A stretch of DNA of 63,476 bases, filler included, from Jimgerdemannia flammicorona (lineage: Eukaryota), in assembly GCA_003990765.1 (NCBI GenBank). It is 3 parts of 3 records of this genome, joined end to end, with 100 filler letters (N's around TTAATTAATTAA, not from the genome) between each part and the next. Parts side by side here need not be neighbours in the genome. Positions count along the whole stretch, not along the records: positions 21,195 to 42,286 come from RBNJ01001537.1; 2 more parts are not named here. One strand, written 5' to 3'. The notes below the pieces were generated by a model that had not been told where the DNA came from, did not search any database, and was given only the letters and a program-made list of their open reading frames with translations. Shown here piece by piece: positions 21,095 through 63,458 of this stretch (position 1 is its first letter; each line of letters starts with the position of its first letter). The position numbers and the translations under genes are program-made.

Positions 21095-21194
21095 NNNNNN
21101 NNNNNNNNNNNNNNNNNNNNNNNNNNNNNNNNNNNNNNTTAATTAATTAANNNNNNNNNNNNNNNNNNNNNNNNNNNNNNNNNNNNNNNNNNNN
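21095..21194. other. Artificial contig spacer (N44-TTAATTAATTAA-N44)
   Basis: 100-nt gap with a central six-frame stop linker; identical to 42287-42386. Confidence 0.98.
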
Positions 21195-22790: not shown

Positions 22791-23489
22791 TCAGATCAAA
22801 GATTATATCTTTGATACTATCATTGATACCAGTACTAGAGAATATCTTATGTGTAAGAAGACAATTGACCATCTAGACTAGGATATTGAAGAATCTACCA
22901 AAATAATCTATATCATAGTAGATTATATATAAGCTACCCTCCTAGGTAAGATCTGAGAAGTCTCTATTAAGATTGAAGGAGTTACTATCTCAGTAGATAT
23001 GATCATTACAAGTACCACCAACTATGGTATCCTCATTAGTAACTAATGACTTTACAAGACCAAAACTATCATTGATCTCAATACCCAGAAGATACAGATC
23101 AACTATAAAGAAAGAAAGATATGAGTCTCTATCAATGTCTATAAAGAAGTACTATCAGACATAGAGGAAGGAGATGAAGAGGATACAGAAGTCTTCATAT
23201 ACTCAGTGTATAAGAACAAGAGCAAGACAACCAAGCTCACAGATGATAAGCAGTAGTATAATAAGATTATTAATAGCTATGCCCCTTAAGGAAGATGCCT
23301 CTATAGTGTCAAGATGTACTACTCTGAACACTTAAATAACTGCTAGTCCTATATCAGTGAAGTCAGAAAAATCTATCAACAAAGGAATAAGCAAGAAGCA
23401 GCTGAAGCAAAAAAGAAAGCTGAAGAAGATGACCAGCCCCCAGAGCTTCAAGCTGATAGTAATGATAAGGAGAAACAAGAACCAGACAT

Positions 23490-23900
23490 TATCCTCAAGG
23501 TTAAGAAGTTTTACTCTAAAGCCAAGATCTTAGAATATAAGACTGAAGGAACAGTAGAAATAGACCTTACTAGTATCCAAGATGCTATCCTTGAACCACA
23601 AACTACTACTCTACTTGGTACTGGAATTTAAGTCAAGTTACCAGAGAACCATGCCAGAATTATCAAGACCAGGAGTAGTCTGATCAAGAGTAAAATCTCA
23701 GTTAAAGAAGGAGTCATTGACCCTGATTACACTAGTGAGATCTTCCTTATAGTCAGAAATCACAACCACCCCATTCAAAGTCAAGAAGTATAACAGAATT
23801 GGCCAGATACTGATCCATAAAGTTAAGAAGCCTAAGATCACTGAAGTCATTAAACTCATCAAGACTAAGAGAGGAGAACAAGGCTTTGGATCTACTAGAA
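23490..23900 (+). pseudogene. dut: dUTPase domain
   Basis: LKVKKF...IDL...LGTGI...KTRSSL...EGVIDPDYTSEI...RIGQ...RGEQGFGST (one frameshift). Confidence 0.9.
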
Positions 23901-26900
23901 GAGGAGCCTATACTATCACTAAGATTACTGAACTTAAGCATAAAAAAGACAAAGACCAGAATAAGCACACATATACCATTAGAGAAAACTTTTCTCTAGA
24001 AGAACAACTTTTCAAGATTCTGTACTAGAATAAAGGAGTACTCACTACAGACTTTAGGGATATCTATAATAAAGAACCCAAGTACTATTATAAAGTTGAC
24101 ATTAGTGATACTAAGCCCATCTACCAGAAAGCCAGACCTATACCACTTGCCTACAGAGAATGGCTGTGAGCAGAACTCAAAGAAATGAAAAAAGCTAATA
24201 TCATCAAGCAAGCTATTAGTCTCTGGGCTTCACCTATTGTTCTCACCCCAAAGAAAGAGAGCAAGCCTGGAGAGTTTGCTCCAAGACTTTATATTGATTA
24301 CAAGAAGCTCAATGTAATTACTAAGAAGGATAGGCAGCCCTTGCTAAATATTCAAGAAATCCTTACCACCCTTGGAAGCAAAGCCAAATACTACACTACC
24401 TTAGATCTGTTCTCAGGCTTCTATCAGATTGATCTCACTTAAGATACTAGTGAGAAATCAGCCTTCATTATACCTGATACCACCCATGTCTATCTATAAA
24501 TGCCATTTGAAATGTGTAATGCCCCAGTAAATTTTCAGTGAATGATGAATAAAGTCTTCAATAATGAAATTGGAAAATGGCTCTTTGTCTATATTGACAA
24601 TGTGATCATCTTCAACAATACTGTATGGGAACATATCAACTACATACAGCTAGCTCTCAAGAAGCTCAAGGAGTATGGCCTCTATATCAAGCCTAAGAAG
24701 TGCAAGTTTGTAGCTCAAGAAATTACCTATCTAGGACACATCATCAATCAGACTGGTATTTATATAGATCTCATGAAAATTGAGACTGTTGTGGCCTACC
24801 TAAGACTCAGAACAACTACAAAAGTCTATGTCTTTCTCAGACTAGCCTCCTACTAGAAGATTTATCAAAATATACTCTAATATTACAGTACTTATCTATA
24901 AGCTACTGAAGAAGGAGATCAAGTTTGAATGGACCAAGGAATGTTAAGAAATCTTCAATGAACTCAAGACCAAGTTGACCCAAGCACCCATTCTCAGAAG
25001 ACCAGATTGGAACCTAGAGTTCATTCTGCAGACAGATGTAAGTGCTATAGAACTTGAAGCAGTACTAGCTCAGAAGAAAGATGGATATAAATATGTCATC
25101 TTCTATGCAAGCCAAGATACCTACAGAGTAGAACAGAACTATGAGTTATGTTAGCTTGAATACTTAGCAGTAGTCTGAGTAGTAGATAAGTTCCACTACT
25201 ATCTGACTGAAAAATACTTCATTATTCAAACAGACTATTCTGCTCTCACCTGGCTATTCCACACTTTGAACCTCAAAGAAATATATACTAGATAGATCTA
25301 CAGACTGCAAGAGTATGACTGTACTGTCAAACACTACTCAGGAAGAACCAATACACTGATGCACTTTCAAGAATACCCTGAAATATCCCCCATTAAGACT
25401 ATTTAACATAAATAAAGAGCTATACTATAGATTAATCAGCTACCTTGAGCAGTGGAAGATACCTAACCACCTTGAACCCTGGACTATTACTATTATTAAC
25501 TAGACTTGAAAACAATTTGAACTAGACAATACTATACTCAGAAAAGGAGAAAAGCTTATCATACCTGAATATAAGAAGTATCAAGTAATAAAGGAAGTAT
25601 ACAAACAAGAATACTTAGGAGGAACCAATACATATAACAAGGCAAGAAGAACTATGTAGTGGTCTAAGATAAAAGAAGACCTACACTAATTTGTCAAGAG
25701 TATAACAAGTACTAAAAATAGAAATAAGATCAGTAAGACCAGATATCTGAGTTATCAAGAATTGAACCTATCTCCTTCTACTATGTATATTATAATAGAT
25801 ATCATTAGACTACTACCAGTAACTCTATCAGGAAATCACTATATTATAGTTATTATAGATCTCTTTACTAAATAGATAGAAGCAGAAGCATTACAAGAAG
25901 CTAATACTCTCTCTTGCTGACTTTCTGTATCAAGAAATTATCTACCACTATAAGACACTAAGGCAAATCACCATAGACTGCAATACAGAATTTGTCAACA
26001 GATTCTATGAGATAATATATCAGAAATATAAAATTCAGTATATCAAGACTACTATATATCGCTCTCAAGGAAATAGATAGATAGAAAGAATAAATAAGAC
26101 TCTCAAGAACATCCTGGCCAAGATCTCAGACATATATGAGAATTGAAATAGCTATCTCCCAACTGCTCTCTCCACCCTACAAGATATATAGTCACAGAGT
26201 ACACACTTTATCCCAAGAGAACTGCTCTTTGGAGAAGAAAATTCTGATAAAACCTCAGCTACAAATCTAGATCTAACTTGGCAATAGATTGACTCAGAAA
26301 TCCAGAGACTATACTAAATCAGGAAGAAGGCAGAATATTATATCATCAAGTTACAAGTATTAATAAGAAAGAATGTGGAAAAGAATTACAAGACTCTAGA
26401 ACTCATTCAAATCAGAGAAAAGGTCCTACTATATTAAATATAGTAGAAGCCTCATGGTCATAAAAACTAGAGTCCAAATAGAAAGAACTCTTCTATGTGT
26501 AAGATATTAAGAGAACTACCTTCTGGCTTAGAAAATACTCAGGAACTATACTGCCTACTACAGTACACAGAAACAGACTCAAGAAGTACCATAAACCTAT
26601 ATAAGAGAAGTAAAACATAATGATCACCTGTGAGGTTCTAGTCTACAAATCATAATAGCATGTCCCATGACCAGCAGACAATCTGTCTAGACTATTCTCT
26701 AAGAGATATAGTACTAGCAACTACTCATCTATGAGACTTTCAAAGTTAGAGGAGTTTGAACTATCAACTGATTGGTCAAGATCAGAATCAGGCTATTGAT
26801 TTATATGAAGAAAGCTACTCTTCACTATTATGCCAAAATATATAAGAAAGACATCAGCCCATAAATACTACTTTTTGACCCCCTGTCAGAGGTTATGGAA

Positions 26901-27229
26901 TCAGAAAAATTTTCAGACCAGACTAATGAATAAGATCATTCAAGAGAAGATCCTTATTTAGGAGAAAGATATAATAGTAATCTCAGAATAGTAATATTAT
27001 TATAGGAGACAGTCTTTCCTTATAAGTTATTAGATTGAAGTACAAGAAGATTATATGGCATAACTTACCCAAGCTATAAGATGAGTAATAATGACCAATC
27101 CTAAGTCACAATGACTATAAGATAGATATCTCAAGGAATATAAAAGAAGGACCAGAAAACTACAGTAGCAGCAACTCCAATAAGATTCACAAAAATCTAA
27201 AATAGTTCAAAAGACTTACTATAAACAAA

Positions 27230-27900
27230 ATGCCTCCAGGAACCACCAAGGCCTCTCAGTTCAAGAAAGAATATTCCAAGACATCAGGAGAGCTATGAGG
27301 ACCCACACTAGAAGGATTCCTAGCCTCAACTTGGGTACTAGTGACTCTTACCACTTTATTCTCTACTACTATAAAATGGAGACAAGGATTACTACTACTA
27401 CCAAATGCCTCTGGATGTAGTAGGAATACAAAATAGAAAACCTCCTCTATCAGGAATTCTCTCAGACCAGTCCCCAAGAGATACAAGATGCATGCATATA
27501 AATTGAGAGTAGCCAAAAAGATCCATCAGATCTTCAGGCATGTATCTTGATCAATCTCCAATTTAGAGTATACCAGAGTCTCAGACTTCAAGAAATTATC
27601 AGCCCACCATATAGATATACTGGAGGCCATAGTGGTCACAGAAGTCCAATCCACCATTACTCTCAAAAGTGATAAGATAGAAGAGTTCTGGAATCCTATT
27701 ATTAAGGACAATCTAGATCAATTCCTATAAGGATTAATCTCAGTATTCTAAGGCTCTGGTATCTAGGTCAGACTCTCTCAAGATCCCACCTTTATTCCCT
27801 ACTTTGTGGAGAAAAACATCATAAATTAGAGAGCTCCTGATCTCCTTCCCACCACTATTGAACATGATGATATCATCAGTGATGATGTCATCCTACTAAT
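27230..27900 (+). pseudogene. Family-2 homologue of accessory ORF-Y
   Basis: Translated segments KLRVAKKIHQIFRH...ISNLEY...DF...ITLK...FWNPIIKDNLDQFL*GL...PYFVEKNIIN*RAP align with 49424-50254. TATAAAA at 27139-27145. Confidence 0.75.
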
Positions 27901-28685
27901 CAATATATGTATATGAAACAAATGAAATAGAAATGTTCACTGACCTTATTTCCTTCAAAGACATCCTATTCCTAATCTCTAGTCTTAGTGATAGTGGTAA
28001 AGATAGAGTCTTCAGAATTCTGAATATTCTACTCTAATTTATTTGTATAACTATTTGTTTGAACACTTGAATATTCTAGCATCCTAACCTTGTATAACTG
28101 TTAGAAATTATTTCAGCATTCTGATCTTGTACAATCAATTATATGGATACTTGAATTTGTACTTACAACTTGAAGTTTTCTATATTCAAATATCTTATTT
28201 AGTTATTGGATTTTATATTTAGCTTTATATCTTAGTAATCATTGAATTATATTTTATATAAATACCCCTCTCATTTCTTCAAAATAAAGTCAGTATTAAA
28301 ACACTCCAGCATTCAAGTACCCAACTACTCAAGAGTATAAAAGTTCTAGTCCTCTACTCAATTCCATGCAAGTAAATTCAAGAGATAATATAACAGTTTA
28401 AAGATAAGAAGTTTGAGGACTATAAGACCTTGGAAAAGTACTCCAATAGAACTTGCTTATAAGAAACTTGTAGTTGGTCTAAGAGATATATCTTAAAGAG
28501 AATCTGATATACTTGGAGAACTCAGTGCCCACTATATGACAACAGGTATAGCAAACTATACTGAAATAGAGAGTATAAAGTTAGAGAAAAAGAAACTTAG
28601 ATAGTTATCTATCCATATCTTATAACCAGTATGGTAGCAGAGAAATAAGTCTATTGTCACTCATTCTAATATATTTTACTACTCA

Positions 28686-29160
28686 TTCTAGTCAGTAGGG
28701 AAGAAAAAAGAAAAAAAAAACAAAAGGTTCAGAGCTTTTAAAATTCTTCTTATTATATAGTCTGAAATCTTACTCTATCTTTCTGTCTTCTAAAGCTCCT
28801 TTTTTTGAGGGGGCCTAATGCTTGATACACTCTCTACTATTTATTCTAATATCCTTCACTACTTATTTCAGCCACTTGACATTATCTCAACTCATTACTT
28901 ATTCTAATATATCTTGACTTATTACTTGTCTTACTGCTAATTCTAGTTAGTAGAGAAAAAAAGAATTAAAAGATTTAAAGCTTTCAAAATTCTTCTCATT
29001 ATATAGTCTAAAACCTTACCTTATCTTTCTGTTTTCTGATATATACTTCTTTTTTTAAGAGGAGAAGGGGGGGGGTCACTGCTTATTTCAGCACTCTCTA
29101 CTATTTATTTCAGTACTCTCTACTACTCATTCTAGCACTCTCTACTACTTAATCTAATAT
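28686..29160. repeat. Degenerate ~100-bp direct repeat pair plus short ~20-bp tandem units
   Basis: 28686-28790 resembles 28940-29038 (attctagt.agtag...aaaattcttct.attatatagtct.aaa.cttac). cactctctacta.tta.t units recur near 28828 and 29092-29155. Confidence 0.55.
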
Positions 29161-30185
29161 CTTCTACTATATCTTCTTCTTCATCTCTTCAATTTAACAT
29201 TACCTCACCTCATCTTGTCATATTACTTATTCAATACTATGCTACTCATTTTATCTATCCAATCAGTAGAGTAATTAATTTAGAAATTAATTAATTTACT
29301 TATATTAATTATTTTATCTTATATACCCTACCTTGTCTACTGATAAGTCTACAAACAAATAAATAGTAATACTTAATATCTCATATATTATATTCTATTC
29401 TATTCTACTTAATAATTATTAAAAGAGAGAATATTTTAGATAAAAAAGTACTTTCAGCTAACAATATTAAATTCTTCTCATATAGATAGTACAAAAGCTG
29501 CTTGTCAAAGATAGTGATGAAAATAATGAGGGAGAGTTTTAGTAAAAAAATTATAGAGACTCTTTAGATCTCAGAATTCATTAATCTTATAGCTATATAT
29601 ATAGTAATCTTTGTAGAGTAACTGACAATAGATATAGATTGCAAATTTTTATTATAGTATAACTGATTAAACTTTGAGCTTTTTTTTTTTTTCCTATCCT
29701 TAGGGTCTATAACTCTATAGTGAGATCTACTGATTTTATTCACAATATCTAGTTAAGATAAAGAAAGACTAAAGAACAATTTAAGATATGTCTTTGGTAG
29801 CTAAGCTATTGAGTTAGTATATTATATAATAGAGGTCTCAAAAAGAACAGAAGTAAGCCTTTATAAGTATTTTTATATAACTTAACTACATATAACTCAA
29901 TTCTCATACTCATACTAAATACTCACTCTTTTTTAGCCAAAACTTATATATGACTCACACAACTTATACTGTAATTTATCTTCAGATCAAGGCTCAGTTC
30001 TACTATAGAGGGAAATTCAAAGTAACTCAAGTTTGATCATATCTAACTTCTAATAAATCAAAGAAGTTCAAGGATAAGTTATTTAGTATAAGTAATACTA
30101 ACTTGACCATTAAAACTTAGAGATCAATATTTAAATCAAAACTAATTATTCTTAACTAAGAAATCTACTGATCTGTAAGAGTCTT

Positions 30186-33100
30186 TAGAGACTTCTTTTG
30201 CTCAAACCACTCAGAGTGAGCTAAGCCACACAGATATATTTTTGTGAAAAGCAATACATTTTTAAGTTTTCACTTCACCTACACTAGTATACTAGGTATG
30301 GCAGGAGTCTAGCAATAATATACAATAAGTTTCTTCAATTTCTGTAGAGTTTTCATCTGATAGTGACCTAAGGTTTTTCAAGCTCTGAGCATTTGAAGAG
30401 AAGAAAGCCTGGCCTGGGCCTCTCCAAGAGTTTCGTAGTGGTGGCAGGGGCTGGTGCTGGGGCTGATGGGGCAAGTGGTCAGGGGAGGCTAGCTGGTATT
30501 GAAAGTTGGCATATAGTGATGGAGGACAGGAGGGCTACTGTTAGGCCCATGGGGATAGGGCAGGGGGAATATAGTATTGATAGGAAGAAGAGTCAGATGA
30601 CTGGTCAGATGACTGGTCAGGTGTCTGGCAGAGGTCAGGGGTCCAGAGACATGATGGTCAGGACTAGAATTCCTGAGGCTGAGCTGGTGGCTGGTGGAGG
30701 GACCACTGGTGGGCTTGTAGAGGCTAGAGGAGTGGCTATAGGAGTTTCTGAGAATAAGAGAAAGACTATAATAGTGGCAGGCTCTGATGAACTGGTGGTG
30801 TGCTCTTTCTTTCACAAGTTAGTGTTGATGTGGGTGATCTCAGTGAATTTCTTGGAGCTGGATATGTCTGTCAGAGAAGTTTTGCAGCTAGTGAGTGAGG
30901 AGGTTACTGGTGTAGAGTTACTGAAGTTTATCCCATCAGCAGAGGCAGTAGAGATAGACTTTGTGGAAGAGGAGAAGATGGTGAAGGTCTTAGAGAAAGG
31001 GATGGTAGTCAAGAATATTAAGGTTGAAATAGTGAGATGCTTAAGGTGGGATCTGTATACTATGTATTTAGTGATAGAGGGGCTGCTGATATTGGGGAGA
31101 CAGGAGACTAAGAGGATTGTGGCAGAGGCACTGGGGGGCTTTGGTGAGATGGAAGACTTCAGGTTCATGTTCTGGGAGAGAACTAAGCTAAGGAATAACA
31201 ACTGTGAGGTTATGATGAGGCTAGAGAGAAAGGAAGTCATGGGGCTAGATAGGGACTGGTCAGAGGTGATTCATGTTGGAGGACAGAAGTATAAGGTATG
31301 AAGAAGGAAAGGATCTGAGCAGGAGGAGGAGGAATTGTTACTTACCCTGGAAGAGAGAGAGGTAACAAAGGAATTGTAAAAGAGGAGATAGAAGGAGTTT
31401 ACTAAGGACTGAATCTGAATTCTGACAGATGGGAGAAGGAAGAGATGGTGGAAGACAAACTGGGAGTATCTGCAGATAGTCCTCCAGGGCTTGAAAGTAG
31501 TGGAAGAAGTAAGGGCAAATATGGCCAAAAGTCAGATAGAGGAGGTGGAGGCAGCAGAGGTGTCTTTTTTACAACTAGGAGGTGTGAAAAACTCAGCTCA
31601 TATATTGGTGAAGGGGAAGTGGGCTGATAGGGGGGAGGTAGGCAAAGAGAGTTTTGAGGATATCACTGAGAGAGTACCAGAGACTCAGTTGGAGGATGTC
31701 TATATGGCAGAGGCAGTGAATGTTCATTGGGAATATTCAGAGGCAGGTGAAGTAGTGTGGCTGGAGAAGGATGCTGAGGAGGATGATCTGGTGAATGTAG
31801 CCTCTGATGTTTTGGCAGACAGAGAGATGCTACAGGAGTTGAGTAAGACCTTAAGGCCAGCCACCCCTAGACCTCTGGTGATGACAGCTGATAACTGATA
31901 TCAGGTAGTGCTTGAGGAACTTGTGGAGGAGGATATCAAGGAAGTAGATGTATTTAATGGGTCTCAAGAGACCTGGGAGGGATTCCTCAATATTGTAATA
32001 TAGGGGCCAAAGTTGGTAACAGCAATGGTGGTGGTACTTCTGGATGATGAAGGGTATGAGGTAGATGAGGACCAAATGGCTGATATTAGGAAAGTGGTAT
32101 CTGAGTAAGTGGAGGTCTTCTGTAGCAGTATGAATGGGACCTGTATCCAGAGGGCTATCTGTAAGGAATGAAAGGAAATAATCTGCAGTCATACTGAGAA
32201 GGTGGTAGTAATTCCTGTAGAGCTTTAAACATTTTTATTATTAATGATGAACAGTCTATATATCTTATTGTTAAATATCAATAATCTGTATGATGGAGTG
32301 AAGCAAAGGCATCTATTTCGATAGCTAAAGGTCAGGATATATAATGTGGTGTTTCTTCAGAATATTTGAGTCTATGGTGAGTAAGATTATAAGAAATGGA
32401 GCAGGGAATGGTATGGCAGTATAGGTTGGAATGGGCAGATGGGTATCTTGGTTGGTTTGGAGAGAGGTGAGCTGGTAAAGGTTAAGGTATATGGTGATTG
32501 ATTGATTTGGGGGAAATTAAAAGAAAGAGCTGGAGATAGGTTAGTTGTAGGCTCTACTTATTTACTGATGGTTGGCAGAGAGTGAAACTAATGGGTGGAG
32601 GGCTGGCTGGCTTAGAGAGACTGAGAGGGAGTCAGACTAGACATTCTGGGGGGGGGGGGACTTTAATATGGTACATAACAGGACATTAGATAGGTCTGAT
32701 GGTGGAGTTGGTATAGTAGTCTCAGTGGGGCTCTCACAATGGCTTCAGATGGAGAGGGATATGGGATTGGTTGATGGGGTATGACAATGTCAGAGAGAGA
32801 GGCCAGGGCCCTTTACTAGATAGTACTCTATTGGCAAGAACTTGGTGGGGACAAGGATTGATTGGATTCTGATAGCAGAATACTGGGATAATGTATTGAA
32901 TATGGCAGAAGTATGGTAGTGTCCTTGGTCAGACTACTGGAGAGTAGAGGTGTGTGGAAGATTTCAGGTAGTCAGCAGAGATAGAGGTTGCTAGTGGCTC
33001 AATGTAGCTCTACTCAGAAGAAAGGTAGAGCAGGAATGATTTGTGATGATTGCAAGACAGGAAGTAATGTAGTAGAAGAATAGTAGACAGCTAATTGAGT

Positions 33101-35831
33101 AGTGGTAGGGTAAATTCAAACATTTGGCAGGTACCTACTGGTATGATATAGGGGATGTTGCTGGAAGAGAGCAGAAGAATAAAGAGAGGAGAGTTGAGTA
33201 AGGGCTATGATGGCAGCTGAGGATGTTGGAAGGGGAGAACTTATTAGAAGAGTGATGCTCCTGGTTGATCAAGGAGGCGGCTGAGTTGAAGTGAAATTTA
33301 AAGGCAGCTGAGGATAGAGTGGTAGATGGTCTGTTGGCAAGATTGTGGGCAAGGTGGTTAGAAGAAGGAGAGCAGCCTACTAAATATTTATCAGGAATTT
33401 TGAAAGCCAGGAGGGTGTAATACAGCTGGGCTTTGGTGCTATGAGAGGATGGTATTGAGATTACTGAAATTACTGATATGCTTGAAGAGATCTCAGGATG
33501 ATGGTGCACTCTCTGGCAGGATGAAGGAGGACCAGTGGGGGGAGAGGTCTTATAGGAGGATAATGATAATTTAGTAGGCAGCTGGTCTGTAGTAGCAGTA
33601 TCTGAGATAGGTAGAGCAGTAATAGGTACAGTGGCCCTTGAAGAGGTGATGGAGATGCTGAGGAATATGTAAGCTAATTTATCACTGAGGGAGGATGGAC
33701 TGCCTTGGGAATTCTGGAAGGAGTTCTAGGTTGAGTTTGATGGATGATTAGTTGAAATAGTGAACTTTGTATTGAGAGAAGATATATAACTAGATTGGTA
33801 ATAGTTCCTTAGGGTTGGTCTCTCTACTATATATATAAGGAAAAAGGGGATTGATACATATGGTAGAACTGGCAGCCTATCATATTATTAAATGTAGACA
33901 GGAAGTTAGTGTCCAAAATTCTGGCTGGGAGGATGCAGTGGTGGATTGGCTGATTAGTGGGTGAGGACCAGTGAGATTTTGTGAAGGAGAGGCAGATTTG
34001 AGATAGTACTGCCTGGGTGCAAAATATTTTAGAGAGCTGTAGAAGCTGGCAAGTAGATGGGCAGATGGTCTTCTTGGATCAAGAGAAGGCATATAACAGG
34101 GTATAGTAGAACTATTTGAAAGTAGTACTGCAGAAAGTAGGGTTTGGCACAGTAGAGGCTTGAAGATTGATGGGTTTGGTGTGAGACTACTGAGCAGCAG
34201 TACTGATGAATGAGTGGTGTGGCCCAGAGTTTGCCTTAGGGAGAGGTGTACCACAGAGGGATCCTCTCTCTCCTCTGCTTTACATTTTGTCCTTAGAGCC
34301 TTTGCTGGCTTGGCTAAAGGGGAGACTGACTGGGTTATAGATAGGGGATGTGGTCTGGAAGTTGGGGGCTTTCACTGATGATATAGTGGTTGAATTAGGC
34401 TATATAGCAGATGTAGAATGCCTGCAGGAAGGGGTTGGACAGTATGAGAGACTGGCAGGGGTAAAGTTGAACTGGGGCAAGTGTGAGACAATGAAGCTTG
34501 GAGCTGGTCTGGGAGAGAATGGGTGTTTTGGACAAATGGTAGATATAGGAGAAGTAGTTCAGTATTTGGGTATCTGGTTCTCAGTATATGGGATGGTGCT
34601 GTCAAAGATATGGTGGTGTGGCATGATATAGAAGTGGGAGAGTGCTTTGATGGGCTGGTCAGAGAGGGGTTTCTCCTTGGTTGGAAGAGTTGTAGTATTG
34701 AATATATATTGGCTGCCTAAGTTGTAGTATTTGGGATACTATCTGGATTTTTCTGGATAAGTGATAAGGAGACTAAAGAAGGTGATAGAAGGATGGCTAT
34801 GATAAGAGAGACAGCTACAGATTAGTTGGGAGACAGTAGTAATGTGGATGGTAGATGGTGACCGGGGACTGGTAGACTTTAGGAGGTGGTTTAAAGTGCT
34901 CTGAGGCTGGTAGGGTTGTCAATTAGCAGAATTAGGAGTAGATGGTTGAGGCAGACTGGCTATGGACAATTGGGAGGTCAGGTTCTGCCCCCATGGTGAG
35001 ATTTGGAAGGATATGCAAGGTTTGCTTCAGGTGGGAAGGGTCAGCAGACTGTATTACAAGGGGTTCTGGTGGGGTATTTTAGAGGCCTGGCTGGCAATAG
35101 GACTTATAGGATCAGAGCTGGGAGAAGGGGAGGACCCTGAGCAGAAATGATAGTGACTAGGAGACCTTCATATTGGTAGCCATTAGTTGGCAGAGTACTC
35201 TCTGTCTGGAGCAATGGAATGGATCAGAACAGGCCCACTTGAGATATGGCTAGTTGGTTGGCAGAAGGCTGGGCTTGGTGAAGACTGGGAGTGGGGTTGG
35301 GTCTGGAGTTGGGGGGCCTCTCTGCTCAAAGTTGTACTGCCAAAGTATTGGATTATATAGTGGAGATTCTTGAGAAGGAATGTGATGCTGGGGTACCAGA
35401 TAGGATGGATGGAGGTGGAAGATGACAAGGAATATGAGTAGTATTATGAGGTAGATAGAGATGTGGTCCAGTATGTCTTAGTAGTGTGTCCGGGGGTTGA
35501 GGGGTATTGGTAGATATTAGAAGGTTATTGGGGTTGTGAGGGTGGGCAACCAGAGGGCCCCACTAGTCAGATGGTTAAGCAGTAGCTAGTGAGAGAGACT
35601 GGGAATATCTGGGATAGTCTGGGCCATGTTCTTGGTACCTGGATCCTGATGGCAGTGTACTGGTAATGGATGTTTAAGAGAGGATCTATAGATGGAAATT
35701 GGTGAATTAGTGAAGTGGTGGAGGTGGTTGCTTCAGGAAGTAGTATAAGGGTGGTGGTATTAGGGGAAGAGACACCAGCTAGGGGTCTTGAGGAAGGTAC
35801 AGAACATTGTACAGAGGAGTTGAGGGCACCT
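30186..35831 (+). mobile_element. L1/Tx1-like LINE, older copy, interrupted near its 3' end by an LTR element
   Basis: 5' UTR, ORF1 (~30360-32230) and ORF2 (from 32244: APE, RT GVPQRDPLSPLLY / FTDD) are colinear with 58819-52959. Many stops. Confidence 0.93.
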
Positions 35832-40520: not shown

Positions 40521-40719
40521 TCCCACTTGTTGCAGGTGTGGAGATCAAATTGTCCTTGTATATTAGGTTCAATTCTCTCCAGATTATCAGATAGTTCAGA
40601 ATAAATTCCAGTTCAGAGGTTGGGCTTTATACCAACTTATAGAAATTCTCAGAGGGTTTTGTAGTGGGGTGAGAAAGCATCTTGAAGCAGAATTGGATTG
40701 TAAACTGCTACTATCAAGT

Positions 40720-42286: not shown

Positions 42287-42386
42287 NNNNNNNNNNNNNN
42301 NNNNNNNNNNNNNNNNNNNNNNNNNNNNNNTTAATTAATTAANNNNNNNNNNNNNNNNNNNNNNNNNNNNNNNNNNNNNNNNNNNN
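42287..42386. other. Artificial contig spacer (N44-TTAATTAATTAA-N44)
   Basis: Same 100-nt linker as 21095-21194. Confidence 0.98.
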
Positions 42387-42777
42387 CCCTGAGTCTTAGT
42401 AATGACATCTAAGTGACTCTAGTGTTTCTGACTAAACTCCAGAAGCCTAGCTAACTTCTGCCAGAACTGAGACTGGTATATAAATCCCCAAAGACTTAAG
42501 TAAACCCATTGAATCTGAATTCCAAGGCGAATTCAATCTGTACATAGCAAAGAACAAGACCTTCGAAATAGGACATAAGAGAAAGACCTTTGAAACAGAA
42601 GGCAAACTCAAGAAAGACCTTTGAAAGATAAGGCACTACCACTACACTTACTTACAAGTGAGTACTACCTCAAACTGAAGGCTTCTTGGTATACATTGTA
42701 TACTAAGTCCCTAAGTAATAGTCCACTTCCCTAATTATCCAAAGGATAAGAGAGGGGTAGAAGTGAGAGTTATTACA
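42387..42777 (+). repeat. 5' LTR (3' portion) of copy A
   Basis: Matches about 50654-51013 and ends GAGAGTTATTACA. Confidence 0.93.
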
Positions 42778-44649: not shown

Positions 44650-45065
44650 TTATCAAAGTACAGAAGATATGGTACAAGGCTACCATCTCTACTAAGGCTC
44701 ACCCAACTGATACTGGATATGATCTCTACAGCAGCCAAGACCTCACTATTCCACCAAATACCAATGCTACAGTGTGAATAGGAATTGCAATACAAGCCCT
44801 CAAAGGAATATATATCTGCCTTGCTGAGTGAAGTAGCCTAGTCAAAGTGTTCAATATTGGACTAGGAGGAGGAGTAGTTGACTAAGGATTTACTGGCAAA
44901 ATCCATATCATCTTGCAAAATTTTGGAGACACATCATTTGAAGTCAAAACAGGCCAAAGGATTGCCCAAGCAATCATTGAAGAAATCCGTCAAGATCTCA
45001 CCATTGAAGAAGTCCCCAAACTCTCCCAGATAGACTGTAGCAAGAAAGGGTTTAGATCTACCAAC
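44650..45065 (+). pseudogene. dut: dUTPase domain directly after nucleocapsid
   Basis: KAHPTDTGYDLY...IGIAI...*SSL...GGGVVD*GFTGKI...GQRIAQAII...KKGFRST, in frame with the zinc knuckle. Confidence 0.93.
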
Positions 45066-45369
45066 AAACCTCCCAGTCAAAAGGGCACTACCATGAAGAA
45101 AGATGATGAAAACTGGTATAAGAGAATTGCAGATGGTTATGTACCATGTGGACGATGCCCTCATTCTATTTGAATGTACTGCATGGAACATATTGGTGAA
45201 TGCCATGCATGCCTCTTCAAAGTTTTCAAAATTCAATCTGAGAAACGCCAAGATCAACAGACTGAGGAACTCAAACAAGACAACCCTCCTTGTGAAAGAT
45301 GGAGAGAAACTGACTTTGAGGAGACTGACAGCAATTGGGATAACAATGAAGATAAAGAGCTCAATACTA

Positions 45370-48300
45370 TAAAAAAGGAGGACAGTTGCATCAAGTTCAC
45401 AGGCCAAGTTCACAGACAAAATATCAATGTCTTGCTTGATAGTAGTGCTACTGGAAACTACATCAGCACTAAGACCACCAAGATGATTGGAGCCCGAAGC
45501 AGACCAACCACTGAGAAAAGAAGTATTACCTTTGGTAATGGTAAAACTGCACCATTGACCAAGATCTGCAAAGATCTTTTGCTCAAGATTGGCAAATATC
45601 AAGAGAAGTTAGACTTTAGCATTGTAGACCTCCCAGGACAAGATATTATCTTAGAAAAAGCCTGGTTGACCCAGCACAACCCAGACATCAACTGGAGAAC
45701 CAACGAGATTAACCTGATCCATGAAGGCAGAAAGATCACCCTGACACCACAGGAAGGTACCAACTATCAAGGAATCAAAATCATCTCTGCCATTCAAATG
45801 AAGAGACTCTCTTGAAAAAAGGGAAATACCTACTTCATCTGTACAGTACAAGAAGTCACTGAAGCTACAAGTAGCCCAATCCCAACAGAAGCTCAAGAAC
45901 TATTTAAAGAATTTCAAGATGTATTCTAAGACCCCCAAGGACTTCCACCCAAGTGCCAAATCCAATATGAAATTGATCTTATTCGAGGATCTGAACCCCT
46001 ATACAAGAGTATCTACCAACTAGCCCAACCTGAGCTCAAGACCCTCAAGGATTAATTGACCAAACTACTGGCCCAAGGATACATTGAACCCAGCCACTCT
46101 CCATTTGGAGCCCCCATTCTATTTGTCAAGAAGAAGGATGGTTCTCTGCAAATGTGTATTGACTACAGAGCTCTCAACAAGATCACTATCAAGAACTGGT
46201 ATGCCTTATCTAGGATTGATAAGTTGCTACACCAAATCTTCAAGGCCAAGACCTTTTCTCTACTGGATTTGCGAAATGGCTACCACCAGATTCTCATTGA
46301 TGAGAAGAACATCAAGAAGACAGCTTTCTGAACACAGTTTGGACACTACCAGTTCTGAGTCATACCTTTTGGATTGATCAATACACCAACAACATTCCAG
46401 TATCTGATGAATGACATCTTTGGACCACTCCTCAACATCTGTGTTCTTGTGTATATTGACAATATACTAATCTACAGTAAAACAGTAGAGCTACATTACA
46501 CCCACCTCAGATATGTACTGACCCTCCTGCGAGAACACTAGCTCTATGCCAAGATGAGTAAGTGTAAGTTCTATCAAGACCAGATTGAGTACTTAGGACA
46601 CATCATCTCTGCCAAAGGTATTAATTTAGACCCCCGAAAGGTATCAGCCCTTAAGGATATCCCTATTCCTACTACCCTCAAGCTACTCCAGCAATTTCTG
46701 GGTATTGCCGATTATTACTGAAGGTTTATCCAAGGATACTCTGCTATTACAGCCTCACTGACCAGCCTGGCCCACAAAGGAGTAAACATCAAAGCTGAAT
46801 GGACTCCTGAATGTATCCTGGCTATGGACCATCTCAAGAGACTCCTTACTGAGGCCCTAGTACTAATTGCACCTGACCCAACCAGATCATTCACTCTGAC
46901 CATGGATGCCTCTGACATTGCCATTGGAGCAGTGCTCAGCCAAGAAGACTGCCCAGTGGCCTACCTTTTCCAAAAGCTCAAGCCAGCTGAGACCCAGTAT
47001 ACTATCCATGAGAAGGAACTCTTGGCTATTGTCACTGTACTTTAGGAATAGCGCCATTTCCTCCTAGGACAGCCATTTGTGGCCTACACTGATCACTATG
47101 TATTGTAGTATATTTACACACAGCTCATACTGACCCACAGACAAGCCTGCTGGATGGAAATCATTGCCAACTTTGATATAGAAATCAAGTATATCCCAGG
47201 CAAAACCAACCATGTGGCTGATGGTTTCTTCAGGTATATGGAGGATGAACTTGTCTTCATGGTCAAAGTAATTGAAGACCTTATCCAAATGATCAAGGAT
47301 GGCTACCAGCAGGATAGCCCCCTGATGAACTTCCTTCAATTCTGCCAAGATCCAGAGGCCAAGGTTCCAGAATCCATGAGACAAATGGCCAAGAGATTCA
47401 CCTATCATGATGGACTTATCTACAGAGACCATGACAGAGTAGTTGTACTCAACAATGATACTCTGCGGCTCAAGATCATGCAGGAACTCCATGATACTCC
47501 TGCAGCAGGACATTTTGGTTTCAAAAAAACCTACAACCTCCTCTCAAGAGAGTTCTACTGGCCAAAGATGACCAAGAACATCAAAGACTTTGTGACCTTA
47601 TGTAAGATGTACCAAAGGTTTAAAAGTAGTAACAAGCTACCAGCCAGACTCCTGCAACCCTTGCCTATCCTGAGTCATAACTGGGACCAGATTGCAATGG
47701 ACTTTATTGTCCAACTCCCCAAGACCAAGGCAGGATGGGATGCCATTGTGGTATTCATAGACTGTCTAAGTAAACAAGCCCATTTTGCACCCACCAAGAC
47801 CACCACTATAGTACCAGAGATTGCTGAGATTTTTCTCAATCAAGTATTCAGGCTACATAGCATGCCTAGTACTATTGTATCTGACCAAGATGCCAAGTTC
47901 ACAAGCAACTTCTAGAAGGCATTTTTCTCTCTCCATGGAACCAAGCTGAAGTTCTCTACTGCCTACCACCCTCAGACTGACAGTCAAACTGAGCATACCA
48001 ACAGGACTCTCAAACAGATGCTTAGCATCTTCTGCTGTTATAAGCAAAATGATTGGGACAAATACCTAGCCCATGCCGAGTTTGCCTACAACAACAGTCA
48101 GCAAACCTCCACAAAGAAGACTCCATTCTTTCTAAACCATAGTCAACACCTGAGGACCCCAAGTACTACTGCGAAATCAGTAGTCCCAGCAGCCCAAGAT
48201 CTGGCTGAGACCATTTCTGATCTTACCCAAATGACAAGAGATGCTCTCATAGAAGCACAAGACTACCAGACCAAGTATGCGAACTTGAAGTAAAGAGAAG

Positions 48301-48780
48301 CCTCCTACAATATTGGTGACATGGTTATGCTTAGAACAGACCACCTCCACCCAGACACTCTGACATAACAACCAGCCAAGAAACTCTGTGCTAGAAGAAT
48401 TGGACCATACAAGATTATGGAAAAAATCAGTGAAGTCAACTACAAGTTGCAACTCCCCCACAATATCTGAGTACACCCAGTATTCCATATCAGCCAATTG
48501 GTGGACCATCATGAGAATCTATTCCCCGAGCATACAATTCCACCACCACCCCTAATTAGGATCAATGATTATGAGGAATTCAAAATTGAGGAAGTACTTG
48601 ACTATAAGGTCTGCAAATATCCCAAAACAGTCAAGCAGTTTTTCCTGATCAAGTGGAAGGGTTACCCCACTCATGATGCCACCTGGGAAAAAGAAGAAGC
48701 CCTGAAGAATACATGCGAAGCCCTCTAGGACTATATGGAAACACTCACTCCCCAGCAAAGAAAGGAACTGCAGCTCTAGG
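45370..48780 (+). pseudogene. pol: pol: PR-RT-RNase H-integrase-chromodomain, disrupted
   Basis: [70 protein letters not shown]; chromodomain EEFKIEEVLD..FLIKWKGYPTHDATWE. Confidence 0.95.
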
Positions 48781-48899: not shown

Positions 48900-49213
48900 C
48901 AATCTAGTACAGTACAGCAAAATACATTTGAACAACTCCATTTCATACCATCTGTACCATTTCCGCTGGATGATGATGGATACTTCATATAGAACTTAGG
49001 AAAGCTGACAATGTCGAAACCAGTCTAAGTCCATCCACATGACAGATATTATTACTAGGAATTACCTTGGATTACAAGAAAAGTCTATTTCTGAGAGGTT
49101 CAAACTCTCAGCCATAATAATAGGAGCCCTTGCCCTAGACAAGGATGGCCAGTCCTCGCAAATGTGCCAACCAGACAAAAAAAAAGAGGACCAAGACCTG
49201 TTAACCCTGTGTA
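48900..49213 (+). pseudogene. Putative accessory ORF-X (unknown function; start uncertain)
   Basis: QNTFEQLHFIPSVPFPLDDDGYFI*NLGK...HDRYYY*ELPWITRKVYF*EVQ...GWPVLAN...KKRGPRP. Present in copies B and C and in the family-3 LTRs. Confidence 0.5.
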
Positions 49214-49350: not shown

Positions 49351-49358
49351 TATAAATA
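49351..49358 (+). promoter_or_regulatory. Internal TATA box upstream of ORF-Y
   Basis: TATAAATA 73 nt before ATG 49424; conserved in copy B (~59702) and copy C (~62490). Confidence 0.6.
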
Positions 49359-49423
49359 CCCAAGGTAAGAATACTTTGCCACCCTCATCCCCCTCTCCTC
49401 ACAAAGAAAAGGACAAGATAAAA

Positions 49424-50254
49424 ATGCCTGCCACTTGCCACCAAACTGCCCGCCATAGCCAGCCCCTCCTAAGCCAGATTGACTACCTCTTTGGACACAT
49501 CCAGATTACTATCTAAGGAAGGAACCACCACTCAGAGGCTCTTAACCTCTCCAGCCAGGATCTAGGACATTATGTCCTCAACTGCCATGAAGTCATTGAA
49601 AGGGCTTACCTTGCCACTAGCTGCCTAGAGATCTGGTATGAATATGAGATTGGCCATAAACTCCTCCAACGAGCAAAGGACCTGCCCATGGACTAAGTCT
49701 CTGATTGGACCCACCTGGATGGGAGCAAGCAAAGACTTGTCAAGAAGGTCCATCAAATCATGTACCATGCACCCTTTGCAATCCCCAACCTCAACTATGT
49801 CCAACTGAAGGACTTCCAGAACCTCTTCTTCTTTGAGGTTGACAAACTAGAAATCAAGGTAGCCTAAGAAGCCAACTCCTGGATCACCCTCAAGTTTACT
49901 GACTGCAAACCCTACTGGAGCCCCCTTCTGAATAACAACCCTGATCAATGGCTCCAAGGCCTCTCTGACCTCTTTGAAGGACTGCCCATCTGAATAGATA
50001 TTCTCAGGCATGAGGACAAAGAACCCTACTTGGATGGCCCCAACTACATCAGATGGAGAACCCCTACACCAGCACCTATCCCAATGCAAGAACCATTTGC
50101 AGACCTCATTGACTTCTCCATCCTGGACAGTGAGCCATCAGCAACCACCACCCCCCCTACTACTGAAGAAAATACCAACAACCCTGAGCAGGATTCTCTA
50201 CCTTTCTCTCCTCTAGTTCTCAATTTCTCAATCAACGAGGACATTGATTTCTAA
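49424..50254 (+). pseudogene. Accessory ORF-Y, 277 codons, unknown function
   Basis: Single frame from ATG to TAA with no frameshift. Four internal stops: three are Gln codons in copies B/C, and one is TGA/TGA/TAA, consistent with ancestral CGA. The stop overlaps the PPT. Confidence 0.85.
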
Positions 50255-50265
50255 GAAGAAAAGAA

Positions 50266-51013
50266 TGTAATAGAACAAGGCATGATGAGTGATCATGTGA
50301 CCCAACGGTAATGACGTCATCATATGAATGAAGCGTAACATACGAATGATGCAAAACGATACAGAAAATGATATCTAGCTTATTTCCAACAATTGGCACT
50401 ACAGCAACTATTGCCACAGCTACTGATCATTGCCTAGTAATTGAGGTCCTAATTATAAAGATATTCTTTATCAAAAACTACCTGATAAAGGTCACAATCA
50501 CAAACCTCATTATAGTTATCAAATTAATTACTCATACTTAGTCAGAAATCGCAGACTAACTTGTATAAATACCTCCCAGTTTCTATCTAAAATAAAGCAG
50601 TTTTAGTTTAGTCCTTGATACAAGAATCAAGTTCCCCCCCTACACACACATTCCCCTGAGTCTTAGTAATGACACCTAAGTGACTCTAGTGTTTCTGACT
50701 AAACTCCAGAAGCCTAGCTAACTTCTGTCAGAACTGAGACTAGTATATAAATCCCCAAAGACTTAAGTAAACTCATTGAACCTGAATTCTAAGGTGAATT
50801 CAGTCTGTGTACAGCAAAGAACAAGACCCTTGAAATAGGGCACAAGAGAAAGACATTTGAAACAGAAGGTACTGCTGCTACAACTACTTATAAGTGAGCA
50901 CTTCCTCAAACTAAAGGCTTCTTGGTATACATTGTGTACTAAGTCCCTAAGTAATAGTCCACTTTCCTAATTATCCAAAGGATAAGAGAGGGGTAGAAGT
51001 GAGAGTTATTACA
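50266..51013 (+). repeat. 3' LTR of copy A (748 bp)
   Basis: TGTAATA...TATTACA termini, preceded by PPT AAGAAGAAAAGAA. TGACGTCA at 50312, TATAAATA at 50564, AATAAA at 50591. Confidence 0.95.
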
Positions 51014-52956: not shown

Positions 52957-52989
<33 letters not shown>

Positions 52990-58645: not shown

Positions 58646-60602
58646 CCGATAAAAACTCCACCAAAACAGACGAGACTTGTTATATATTGTAGCTAGACTC
58701 CTGCCACACCTTGTACACCAGAATAGATGACAGGAAAACTTGAAAACATGTTGCTTGTCGCGAAAAGATGTCTGTGTGGCTTAGCTTGCTCTGAATGGTT
58801 CGAGCAAAAGGAGTCCTATTATACCTAGTATTCCATATCAGCCAACTGGTGGACTACTATGAGAACCCATTCCCCAAGCATAAAGTTCCACCACCACCCC
58901 CAATTAGGATCAATGATCATGAGGAATTTGAAATCAAGGAAGTACTTGACCATAAGGTCTGCAAATATCCCAAAACAGTCAAGCAGTTTTTTCTGATCAA
59001 GTGGAAGGGTTACCCCACCTATGATACTACCTAGGAAAAAGAAGAAGCTCTGAAGAATGTACATGAAGCCCTTCAGGACTATATGGAAACACTCACTCTC
59101 CAGCAAAGGAAGGAACTGCAGCTCTAAGTATTGGAGCACATAGTGGGCAGAAGGATACTATATATTTTATCTGGAAATATATAATACTGAATATTGCAGA
59201 AAAAGGAACACTATAGATAACTAACAAGAAGATATTCGAGCAAAGGACAATTTAGAATAGTATAGCAAAATATATTTGAACAACTCCATTTCACACCATC
59301 TATGTCATCTCTGCTGAATGATGACAGATGCTTCATATGGAACTTAGGAAAGCCAATGATGTCAAAACCAGTCTAAGTCCATCTACGTGACAGATATTAT
59401 TACTAGGAATTGCCTCGGATTATAAGAAAGTCTATTTCTAAGAGGTTCAAATCTCCAGCCATGACAATGAGAGCCCTCACCCTAGACAAGGATGGCCAGT
59501 TCTCACAAATGTACCAACCAGATAAAAAAAAAGAGGACCAAGACCTGTTAACCCTGTGTAATTATAAGTATGAGTGATGATATCTTTGAAATCAGGATTT
59601 CCTCATATAACTAGCACATGCTCTATTTATAGCAACAGGTCACACATTTTGCTAGAAAGCATGACCAAAGGAAGGTCACACCAGATAGATGAATAAGTAC
59701 ATATAAATACCCAAGGTAAGAATACTCTGCAACTCTCATCTCCCTCTTCTTACAAAGAAAAGACAAGACAAGAATGCCTGCTATCTACCGCCAAACTGTC
59801 CGCTATAGCCAGCCCCTCCCAAGCCAGGTTGACTACCTCTTTGGACACATCCAGATTGCTATCCAAGGAAGGAACCGCTACTCAGAGGCTCTTAACCTCT
59901 CTAGCCAGGACCTAGGATATTATGTCCTCAACTACTGAGAAGTTATCGAAAGAACCTACCTTGCCACCAGCTGCCTAGAGATCTGGCATGAATATGAGAT
60001 TGACCATCAACTCCAAAGAACCTGCCCACTGACCAAGTCTCTGATTGGATCCACCTAGATAGACATGAGCAAAGACTTGCCAAGAAGGTCTATCAAATTA
60101 TGCACTATACATCCTTTGCAATCCCCAACCTCAACTATGTCCAACTAAAGGATTTCCAGAACCTCTCTTTTCCCAAGGTTGATGAGCTAGAGATCAAGGT
60201 AGCCCAAGAAATCAACTCCTAGATCTCTCTCAAATCTACTGACTGTGAATCCTACTGGAGCCCCCTCCTGAATGACAACTTAGACCAATGGCTCCAAGGC
60301 CTCTCTGACCTCTTTGAAGGACCCCCAATCTGAATGGATATCCCCAGGCATGAGGATTAAGAACTCTACTTGGATGGATCCAACTGCATCAGATGGAGAA
60401 CCCCACCACCAGTACCTATCCCCATGCAAGAACTATTTACAGACCTCATTGACTTCTCCATCTTAAAGAGCAAGCTATCAGCAACCACCCCTCCTGCTAC
60501 TGAAGAAGATGATAACAACTCTGAGGAGGATTCTCTACCTTTCTCTCCCCTGGTTCTCAATTTCCAAATCAATAAGGATGTTGATTTCTAAGAGGGGAAG
60601 AA

Positions 60603-61398: not shown

Positions 61399-63458
61399 AA
61401 AACTATCAGACCAAGTATATGAACTTAGAGTGAAGAGAAGTCTCCTATAACATTGGTGACATAGTCATACTTAGAACAGACCACCTCCACTCAGATATCC
61501 TGGTACAACAACCAGTCAAGAAACTCTATACTAGAAGAATTAGACCATACAAGATTGTAGAAAAAGCCTGCAAAGTCAACTACAAGTTACAACTTCTCTA
61601 TAATATCTAAGTATACTCAGTATTCCATATCAGCCAATTGGTGGACTATTATGAGAACTCATTCTCCAAGTATACAGTTCCACCACTACCCCCAATTAGG
61701 ATCAATGATCATAAGGAATTTGAAATTGAGAAAGTACTTGACCACAAGGTCTGCAAATACCCCAAAACAGTCAAGCAGTTTTTCCTGATCAAGTGGAAGG
61801 GTTACTCCATCCATAATGCCATCTGGAAAAAAGAAAAAGCTCTGAAAAATACACACAAAGTCCTCCAGGACTATATGGAAACACTCACTCCCTAGCAAAG
61901 GAAGGAACTACAGCTCTAAGAATTAGAGCATATAGTAAGCAGAAGGATATCACATATTTTTATCCAAAACATATTATACCAAATATTGTAGCAAAAGAAA
62001 CACTATAGATAATCAATGAGAAGATACTCAGGTGAAGGACAATCTAGTATAGTATAGCAAAATGTATTTGAATAACTCTATTTTATACCATCTGTATTAT
62101 CTCTGCTGGATGATAACAGATACTTCATATGGAACTTAAGAAAGCCAACAATGTTGAAACCAGTCTAAGTCCATCTATGTGACAGATATTGTTACTAAGA
62201 ATTGCCTTAGATTACAAGAAAGTCTATTTCTGAGAGGTTTGAACCCCCAGTCATAATAATGGGAGCCCTCACCCTAGACAAGAATGGCCAGTCCTCACAA
62301 ATGCACCAACCAGACAAATAAAAAAGAGGGCCAAGACCTGTTAACTCTGTGTAACCATGACTATGAGTGACAATATCATTGAGATCAGGACTTTCTCATG
62401 TGACCAGCATATGCCCTGCTTTAGCAATAGATCATATGTTTTGCAGGAAAGCATGACTAAAAGAAGGTTACACCAGATAGGTGAATAAGTATAAATACCC
62501 AAGACAAGAATACTCTGCAACTCTTATCCCCCTCTCCTTATAAAGAAATGACAAGACAAGAATGCCTGCTACCTACTACCAAACTGCCTGCTGTAGCCAA
62601 CCCCTTCTAAGCCAGATTGACCACCTCTTTGGATATATCTAGGTTACTATCCAAGGAAGGAACTGCTGCTCTGAGGCCCTTAACTTCTCCAGCCCAGACC
62701 TAGGACAGTATGTCCTTGACTGCTGTGAACTGATCAAAATGGCCTATCTTGTTACCAGCTACCTAGAAATCTAGCATGAATGCAAAATTGGCCACCAGCT
62801 TCTGCAACATACAAATGGCCTATCCACTGACCAGGTCTCTGACTGGACCTACCTAGATAGGCATAAGCAAAGACTTACCAAGAAGGTTTATTAAATCATA
62901 TACTATATATCCTTTGCAATCTCCAACCTCAACTACATACAACTAAAGGACTTCCAGAACCTCTCCTTCCCTGAGGTTGATGCCCTAGAAACCAAGGTTG
63001 CCCAAGAAGCCAACTCTTGAATTGCCCCCAAGTCTACTGATATTGAGCCTTACTAGAGCCCTCTCCTGAATAATAACCCAGACTAATGGCTCCAAGGCCT
63101 CTCTGACCTCTTTAAAGGACCACCTATCTAAATAGATATTCTCAGGCATGAGGATCAAGAACTCTACTTGAATGGCCCCAACCACATCAGATGGAGAACC
63201 CCTACACCAGCATCTATCCCAATGCAAGAACTATTTATAGATCTCATTGACTTCTCTATCCTGGACAGCAAGCCATCAGCAACCACCCCTGCCACTGAAG
63301 AAGATGGCAACAACTCTGAGGAAGATTCTCCACCTTTCTCTCCCCTGGTTCTCAATTTCCAAATCAACAAGGACATTAATTTCTAAAGAGAGAAGGATGT
63401 AATTGAATGAGGTGCAATGAGCAATCATGTGACCTAGTGAGTGATGACATCATCATAC
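61399..63458 (+). mobile_element. Family 4 copy C, 3' part (IN tail-chromo-ORF-X-ORF-Y-LTR start)
   Basis: 61399 onward matches about 48259 onward. Chromodomain ORF 61638-61895, ORF-Y 62562-63386 in one frame, LTR from 63398 cut by poly(T). Confidence 0.93.

Follow-up and report, generated by a model that had tools for sequence, protein, structure and literature searches.

ORF-Y, an accessory gene conserved at the protein level in two divergent Ty3/Gypsy families of Jimgerdemannia flammicorona

Extra genes of long terminal repeat (LTR) retrotransposons are the raw material of retrovirus-like complexity, and very few of them have a known function. In bdelloid rotifers, Ty3/Gypsy elements are described as carrying varied third open reading frames (ORF3s), such as envelope-like, GDSL esterase and DEDDy exonuclease genes, some of them common to several retroelement types (PMC5408684), and the legend of Fig. 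3 in PMC2864245 refers to an unnamed 'add. ORF' of fungal chromoviruses. The CERV protein of the C. elegans Gypsy element Cer1, reported as 517 amino acids (aa) long with a G-protein-like domain, is encoded by a five-exon spliced mRNA whose first exons are shared with gag and is needed for export of Cer1 genomic RNA (PMC10309623). Plant Retand elements are reported to contain conserved antisense ORFs with a TRP28 domain in a region of 2.9-6.6 kb between pol and the 3' LTR (PMC11963269). Here we describe ORF-Y, a reading frame located downstream of pol in two Ty3/Gypsy families (families 2 and 4) found in a 63,476-nt stretch of the Jimgerdemannia flammicorona genome assembly GCA_003990765.1; this whole stretch is referred to below as the window.

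ORF-Y resembles the rotifer ORF3s and the fungal 'add. ORF' in being a gene additional to gag and pol, carried by elements that encode a dUTPase as well (PMC5408684, PMC2864245). Unlike the rotifer ORF3 types named in that account, with which it has no sequence relation, ORF-Y lacks a Pfam domain (PMC5408684), and the fungal 'add. ORF' may be the same as ORF-Y (PMC2864245). CERV, described as being without homologues outside a narrow group and as needed in trans for Cer1 expression, is likewise a lineage-restricted Ty3/Gypsy accessory protein, but ORF-Y is a single uninterrupted ORF after pol and has an acidic tail (PMC10309623). With the Retand ORFs it shares conservation, a possibly regulatory role and a position between pol and the 3' LTR, whereas ORF-Y is a sense-strand gene without a known domain, and the region that holds it spans about 1.5 kb (PMC11963269). 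No description of the ORF-Y protein family was found in the literature, with the limit that the figures and supplements of PMC2864245 could contain an ORF of this kind. Within the known category of extra Gypsy ORFs, ORF-Y represents an undescribed family of accessory genes.

The window is composed of three pieces of about 21.09 kb, joined by linkers of the form N44-TTAATTAATTAA-N44 at 21095-21194 and 42287-42386. Family 2 lies within the second piece and family 4 within the third (42387-63476); because of the linkers, the two families are not neighbours on one contig and element ends at piece borders are artificial. The original prediction proposed that ORF-Y is conserved at the protein level across the two families, and the four pairs of peptides that it aligned were all found in the sequence by translation. 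When the family-2 frame at 27497-27883 was compared with the window by tblastn, the only matches were three family-4 copies (c1, c2 and c3), all on the same strand. Identity of the family-2 core was 36.9% over 122 aa with c2 (60064-60429; E = 3.3e-21), 35.5% over 121 aa with c1 (49727-50089; E = 4e-19) and 33.3% over 129 aa with c3 (62862-63242; E = 2.9e-15). The N-terminal part of ORF-Y, which is in another family-2 frame, matched 59756-60013 and 49406-49669 at 27% over 86-88 aa (E = 2e-5 and 5e-5). In the shuffled control, the real best score was 79.3 bits and no codon shuffle of the family-2 DNA reached it (0 of 200; mean 17.7 bits, standard deviation 2.1, maximum 24.6). In contrast to the protein comparison, blastn between the family-2 and family-4 ORF-Y regions found nothing significant, the best match being 26 nt long with an E-value of 0.12. 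These data confirm homology of ORF-Y at the protein level without DNA similarity.

Stop codons interrupt all four copies in the window, and the family-2 copy needs three frame changes to be read through. These defects would be expected if the similarity had arisen by chance, or if the region were non-coding or merely an extension of pol; relatives outside the window, together with the tblastn and shuffle results above, argue against this. A word-index search returned one relative, P0001, with 61% identity to c1 (E = 2.5e-76), and an exhaustive profile search of 1.84 billion representative proteins returned six clusters (E = 2e-120 to 3e-6), all of them metagenomic, uninterrupted, and either unnamed or labelled 'hypothetical protein'. 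P0001, P0002 and P0003 are family-4-like, whereas P0004 and P0008 (247 aa), both uninterrupted, are close to the family-2 copy. No fused or longer forms of ORF-Y were present among 6129 candidates. A search for ORF-Y loci, with an alignment of five sequences as the query, detected one related locus in metagenome contigs and none in viral contigs. This environmental contig, L001 (1535 nt), contains an uninterrupted 291-aa ORF that starts with MPALR and is followed immediately by a purine run and TGTAAT. In L001, none of the three frames is open over the 375 nt upstream of the ORF, which excludes ORF-Y as an extension of pol. In an ESM Atlas search with P0004, the best score was 0.86, below the 0.9 lead level, and the nearest clusters were unnamed, with a few members labelled Basidiomycota; a search of the same resource with an integrase piece returned mixed phyla.

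The pattern of substitution also distinguishes ORF-Y from non-coding sequence. The ratio of nonsynonymous to synonymous divergence (dN/dS; Nei-Gojobori) between L001 and c1 was 0.20 over 264 codons, and differences at the three codon positions numbered 82, 63 and 126 despite the decay of the window copies. The ratio was 0.26 for L001 and c3, and 0.35 between the dead copies c1 and c3. The uninterrupted metagenome homologues (P0001-P0008 and L001) and the dN/dS of 0.20-0.26 bear out the purifying selection that had been proposed from the window alone. ORF-Y is a real, separate gene that was under purifying selection while the elements were active, and we assign a negligible probability to chance similarity or to a non-coding or pol-derived origin.

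Family 4 is a Ty3/Gypsy family of the chromovirus type with RVP_2, RVT_1, RT_RNaseH, Integrase_H2C2, rve, SH3_Tf2-1 and Chromo matched by Pfam in one frame. Its order (gag, dUTPase, protease, reverse transcriptase, RNase H, integrase, SH3, chromodomain) is confirmed by the Pfam results. In element X, all on the + strand, a 5' LTR remnant cut by the piece border (42387-42777, equal to 50654-51013 by self-blast) is followed by gag and then by pol (44682..48735), which comprises a dUTPase (44682-45063), a protease (45369-45723), reverse transcriptase, RNase H, integrase, SH3 and a chromodomain (48582-48735). A spacer of 683 nt separates the chromodomain from ORF-Y copy c1 (49424..50254, + strand), which has 276 codons, 4 in-frame stops and no frameshift. 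It was delimited by translation, and it matched profile A3, built from metagenome proteins only and without any window sequence, with an independent E-value (iE) of 5e-82. Copy c2 (element Y; 59774..60592, + strand) carries a 10-nt deletion that shifts the frame, as well as in-frame stops, and c3 (element Z; 62562..63386, + strand) is in frame with many in-frame stops. The stop codon of c1 is overlapped by a polypurine tract (50253..50265, + strand), and the 3' LTR (50266..51013, + strand) follows with terminal inverted hexamers, TGTAAT...ATTACA. Self-blast paired the LTR ends of element X at 42777 and 51013; since the piece border truncates the 5' LTR, the start of the 3' LTR was inferred from the polypurine tract and the TG. 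The same order of stop codon, purine run and TGTAAT was seen in c1, c2, c3, L001 and the loose end of one further metagenome contig, which places ORF-Y outside the LTR as the last internal gene.

This slot between pol and the 3' LTR is the position of env genes, and it is the one feature that would fit an envelope-like or membrane protein for cell-to-cell spread. The protein itself does not have the corresponding properties. ORF-Y encodes a soluble protein of 250-340 aa without a membrane segment; in three intact proteins the maximum mean Kyte-Doolittle hydropathy over 19 residues was 0.59-0.66, no N-terminus has a hydrophobic stretch resembling a signal peptide, and the tail is highly acidic. 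Neither the signal peptide nor the transmembrane anchor of retroviral and errantiviral envelope proteins was found. As no hydrophobic segment is present, an envelope role is excluded on this ground, and we leave it only a very slight probability.

Each of three intact members can be divided into a core of 191-216 aa, with an isoelectric point (pI) of 5.6-6.4, and a tail of 56-126 aa, in which bulky hydrophobic residues make up about 30% and the net charge is -15 to -22. When ten sequences were examined in tiles of 39 residues, the net charge of the most acidic tile was -9 to -16 in nine of them, the exception being P0001, which ends before the tail. Of the seven sequences (database proteins and L001) that continue beyond the core, six contain the tail motifs [DN]-L-[IL]-x-F-[SEK] and, near the end, [VIT]-L-N-[FI]; P0001 is again the exception, and P0003 has three copies of the first motif. 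Both motifs are also carried by c1-c3 and the family-2 copy, and the first is missing from the most distant members, P0006 and P0007. ORF-Y did not pass the Pfam-A gathering threshold (best matches E = 0.011-0.13), and a Pfam search of five members at E<=10 gave no family. A PDB profile search gave no chain below E = 0.18, and the single match at that value is not meaningful. ORF-Y is not a duplicate of gag or capsid, as hhalign of A3 with the family-4 gag gave a probability of 0.4% and no relation. AlphaFold2 models of the whole P0003 (9 sequences) and of the L001 core (13 sequences) were both mainly helical in the core with a short beta-hairpin, at poor confidence; with low confidence, the core may be mostly alpha-helical and the tail disordered.

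In family 2, ORF-Y was predicted to end at 27900. The start codon is at 27230, and the real stop, at 28035-28037, lies about 140 nt beyond the predicted end. The copy (27230-28037) is broken into four frame segments by three frame changes and contains at least 8 in-frame stops. On the + strand, the start codon and first residues (MPPGT...; 27230..27273, window frame 2, identified by translation) are preceded by bases that resemble those of L001. A helical N-terminal part in a shifted frame with 3 in-frame stops (27274..27495, + strand; A3 iE 9.6e-22) follows, and then the conserved core (AKKIHQIFRH ... NPDQFLxGL ... PYF; 27497..27892, + strand) with 5 in-frame stops (A3 iE 1.8e-54), which gave the tblastn and shuffle results above. 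The acidic tail (..FTDLISFKD..RILNILL) is in a third frame (27903..28037, + strand; A3 iE 0.003), and the tails of P0004 and P0005 match it. As had been predicted, the ORFs of both families start with MP.

All four window copies are dead relics, altered by C>T and G>A decay. Differences among the family-4 copies are overwhelmingly transitions, and the ratio of observed to expected CpG is 0.00-0.11 in all Gypsy copies and 0.00-0.24 across all window elements, where divergence is likewise dominated by transitions. Alignment of the family-2 copy with the intact P0004 gave 145 identities among 221 residues, and C>T/G>A changes alone can explain 46 of the 76 differences and all 7 aligned stops. The decay is most simply caused by methylation-driven deamination. 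Repeat-induced point mutation was considered as a cause and rejected, since its indices do not fit ((CpA+TpG)/(ApC+GpT) of 1.15-1.54) and CpG-centred deamination does. In all four sequencing runs examined, three from soil metagenomes and one from a coded organism, contigs 80-99% alike span ORF-Y and the LTR, with depth in 30, 30, 27 and 23 of 30 bins. The changes in these contigs relative to the window are mainly T>C and A>G, the reverse of the direction of decay. In addition, we observed a TGA at 49991-49993 of c1 and in the same column of c2 and c3, at a codon that specifies R, K or Q in intact relatives. Possible causes are a CpG-containing arginine codon that decayed independently in the copies and a lesion inherited from the ancestor of the subfamily.

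The original prediction also held that the two families differ in architecture, with the order protease, dUTPase, reverse transcriptase and no visible chromodomain in family 2. The family-2 pol remnant (23227..25872, + strand; Pfam, and tblastn against family 4) includes a Cys-rich motif (23227-23373, tblastn), a dUTPase (23519-23900, Pfam), reverse transcriptase (24053-24853), RNase H (24858-25352) and part of the integrase with its zinc finger (25582-25872), the last three by both methods. The dUTPase does precede reverse transcriptase, as proposed. The place of the protease was only inferred, as the 381 nt between dUTPase and reverse transcriptase, compared with 1065 nt in family 4, are too few to hold one. 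In this heavily decayed copy Pfam detected no protease and no chromodomain, even at E<=5; the missing chromodomain thus agrees with the prediction as an observation, and decay may be its cause. No LTR pair was found for the family-2 element within its window piece. The Cys-rich motif (41% identity over 49 aa), for which no Pfam family was matched, lies after the dUTPase in family 4 (45087-45233) and before it in family 2. The architectures of the two families do differ, and placement of the dUTPase in Pol is reported to vary among fungal Gypsy elements (PMC2864245).

Such rearrangement bears on the proposal, also made in the original prediction, that an ORF-Y cassette had been exchanged between lineages. 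Recombination of the ORF-Y module with its upstream motif between unrelated Gypsy lineages, for example via co-packaged RNAs, would fit the finding that profile A3 detected ORF-Y in families 2 and 4 and not in families 1 and 3 of the window, although the four families are about equidistant in pol (26-38% identity). The position of the dUTPase on different sides of a shared Cys-rich motif indicates that these elements do rearrange modules, and retroelements of bdelloid rotifers are described as sharing ORF3 types (PMC5408684). The divergence of ORF-Y itself does not support the proposal. Between the same two copies, identity is 31.7% over 271 aa for reverse transcriptase, 32.3% over 167 aa for RNase H and 30% over 100 aa for integrase, and it is 36% for the ORF-Y core, 27% for the N-terminal part and about 32% overall. 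ORF-Y is thus no more similar than pol, unlike what would be expected after a recent swap. No DNA similarity is left, and a transfer, if any, would date back about as far as the divergence of the families. We therefore consider exchange improbable. Since ORF-Y has diverged together with pol, the simplest reading of these sequences is that the gene descended vertically from a common ancestor and was lost from, or is absent in, families 1 and 3. In family 1, about 750 nt remain between integrase and the 3' LTR, and just after the integrase (14318-14238, minus strand) there is a non-significant resemblance (iE 1.2-6) to the NPDQWLQGL...F motif.

TATA motifs had been reported before both ORFs, and both are present. 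In family 2, TATAAAAG (27139..27146, + strand) lies 91 nt upstream of the ATG and is a candidate internal promoter motif. In family 4, TATAAATA (49351..49358, + strand), identical in c1, c2 and c3, lies 73 nt upstream of the ATG in all three copies, and the distance in L001 is about 80 nt. L001 and family 2 resemble each other in the bases that immediately precede the ATG, and the TATA motif and ATG context are conserved across the three lineages. On the sense strand, ORF-Y begins at its own ATG (MP...) after a non-coding spacer behind pol, and its stop abuts or overlaps the polypurine tract before the 3' LTR. A subgenomic mRNA would start from the candidate internal TATA promoter 73-91 nt upstream and end in the 3' LTR. 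The protein would act in trans as a regulator or adaptor, with a core that may bind an element-specific partner and an acidic-hydrophobic tail (D-L-I-x-F-S and V-L-N-F motifs) that may recruit host machinery, most likely transcriptional co-activators. This arrangement could produce positive feedback of the type of foamy virus Tas (Bel1) or herpesvirus VP16, which ORF-Y resembles as a small, putatively regulatory gene at the 3' end with a candidate internal TATA promoter, and in which a structured core is followed by an acidic C-terminal tail rich in hydrophobic residues. ORF-Y shows no detectable homology to Tas/Bel or VP16 in Pfam or PDB, and its promoter consists of a motif only. A trans-acting regulator or adaptor whose tail recruits co-activators is our preferred reading of its function, though a rather doubtful one.

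The same protein might instead serve in counter-defence against host silencing, cytosine deamination or uracil-based restriction of cDNA, in the manner of Vif or the plant VANC proteins, its tail working as a decoy or degradation adaptor. ORF-Y occupies the slot of lentiviral accessory genes. A dUTPase is encoded by each of the four Gypsy families in the window, suggesting that uracil in cDNA exerts pressure, and both C>T/G>A decay and the loss of CpG are extreme in the copies. The decay is CpG-specific, however, and ordinary methylation of dead copies would account for it with no need of an editing enzyme; families 1 and 3 manage without ORF-Y, and no homology or motif links ORF-Y to known antagonists. 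We accordingly regard a counter-defence role as unlikely.

Considered together, these data lead us to favour, with some reservation, the reading that ORF-Y is the accessory 'ORF3' of an old dUTPase-encoding Ty3/Gypsy group, in a eukaryote that is probably soil-dwelling and, from weak leads, a fungus. ORF-Y would have been inherited by vertical descent and, as proposed above, might act in trans. Several points weigh against this reading. With ORF-Y undetected in families 1 and 3, vertical descent needs one or two losses; ORF-Y may have been lost from or absent in these families, or may have reached the others by ancient transfer. The candidate promoter is a short AT-rich motif of a kind that could recur by chance, and there was no RNA run among the sequencing runs listed for the stretch, which gave small shares in soil metagenomes and one coded organism. 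Searches of Pfam and PDB detected no homology of ORF-Y to any known regulator. The near-neutral core does not suggest direct binding of DNA or RNA, and because both AlphaFold2 models were poor (pLDDT, the predicted local distance difference test, of 44 for P0003 and 48 for L001) they provide no evidence of fold. The tail may equally belong to other classes of short linear motif (clathrin-box-like, Atg8-interaction-like, SUMO-interaction-like or histone-chaperone-like), and a role as a trafficking adaptor may be an alternative.

Other features of the window concern its repeats. Every part of the window examined was transposon sequence, the longest stop-to-stop frame was 320 aa, and tRNA and Rfam scans of the window gave no match. 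The family-4 copies look nested, X within Y within Z: one LTR ends at 51013 and another at 61398, and the sequence beyond them picks up again at positions equivalent to 47031 (RNase H) and 48259 (integrase SH3), respectively. Integration guided by the chromodomain into other copies would be expected to leave such a pattern. Part of the spacer before c1 (48942-49187) resembles 36945-36697 and 41816-41572 on the minus strand (37-59% aa identity, E = 4e-8 to 3e-5). These segments sit in 1.5-kb family-3 repeats (35831-37336 and 40719-42207) that flank only gag, dUTPase and protease, and the common stretch could be a coding or regulatory block. Element Y contains a GC-rich (0.505) foreign insertion at 52959-58819, whose + strand has a marked excess of C and whose minus strand matches RVT_1 at 53846-54805 (E = 1e-10). 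About 15 nt of family-4 sequence (equivalents of 48472-48486) occur as a repeat on both sides of it. The stretch 30000-35800 has a skew opposite to that of the insertion, and the AT-rich stretches 8300-12500 and 28100-30000 (24-27% GC) may be still older relics.

Across two families that split anciently, ORF-Y is conserved to the same degree as the replication enzymes, which suggests that it is important for propagation of the elements. With its intact copies in environmental DNA, the protein is open to production and experiment. The gene does not demonstrate swapping between families. It can serve as an annotation marker for a group of elements that is barely present in protein databases (6 clusters among the 1.84 billion representatives). 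We think it conceivable, at fairly long odds, that these are 'complex' retrotransposons, a deep Gypsy lineage of a soil eukaryote encoding its own trans-acting regulator or counter-defence protein under an internal promoter and keeping it as tightly as reverse transcriptase throughout the lineage's history. If true, complex retroviruses with accessory genes such as Tas, Vif and Rev would have a parallel outside animals.

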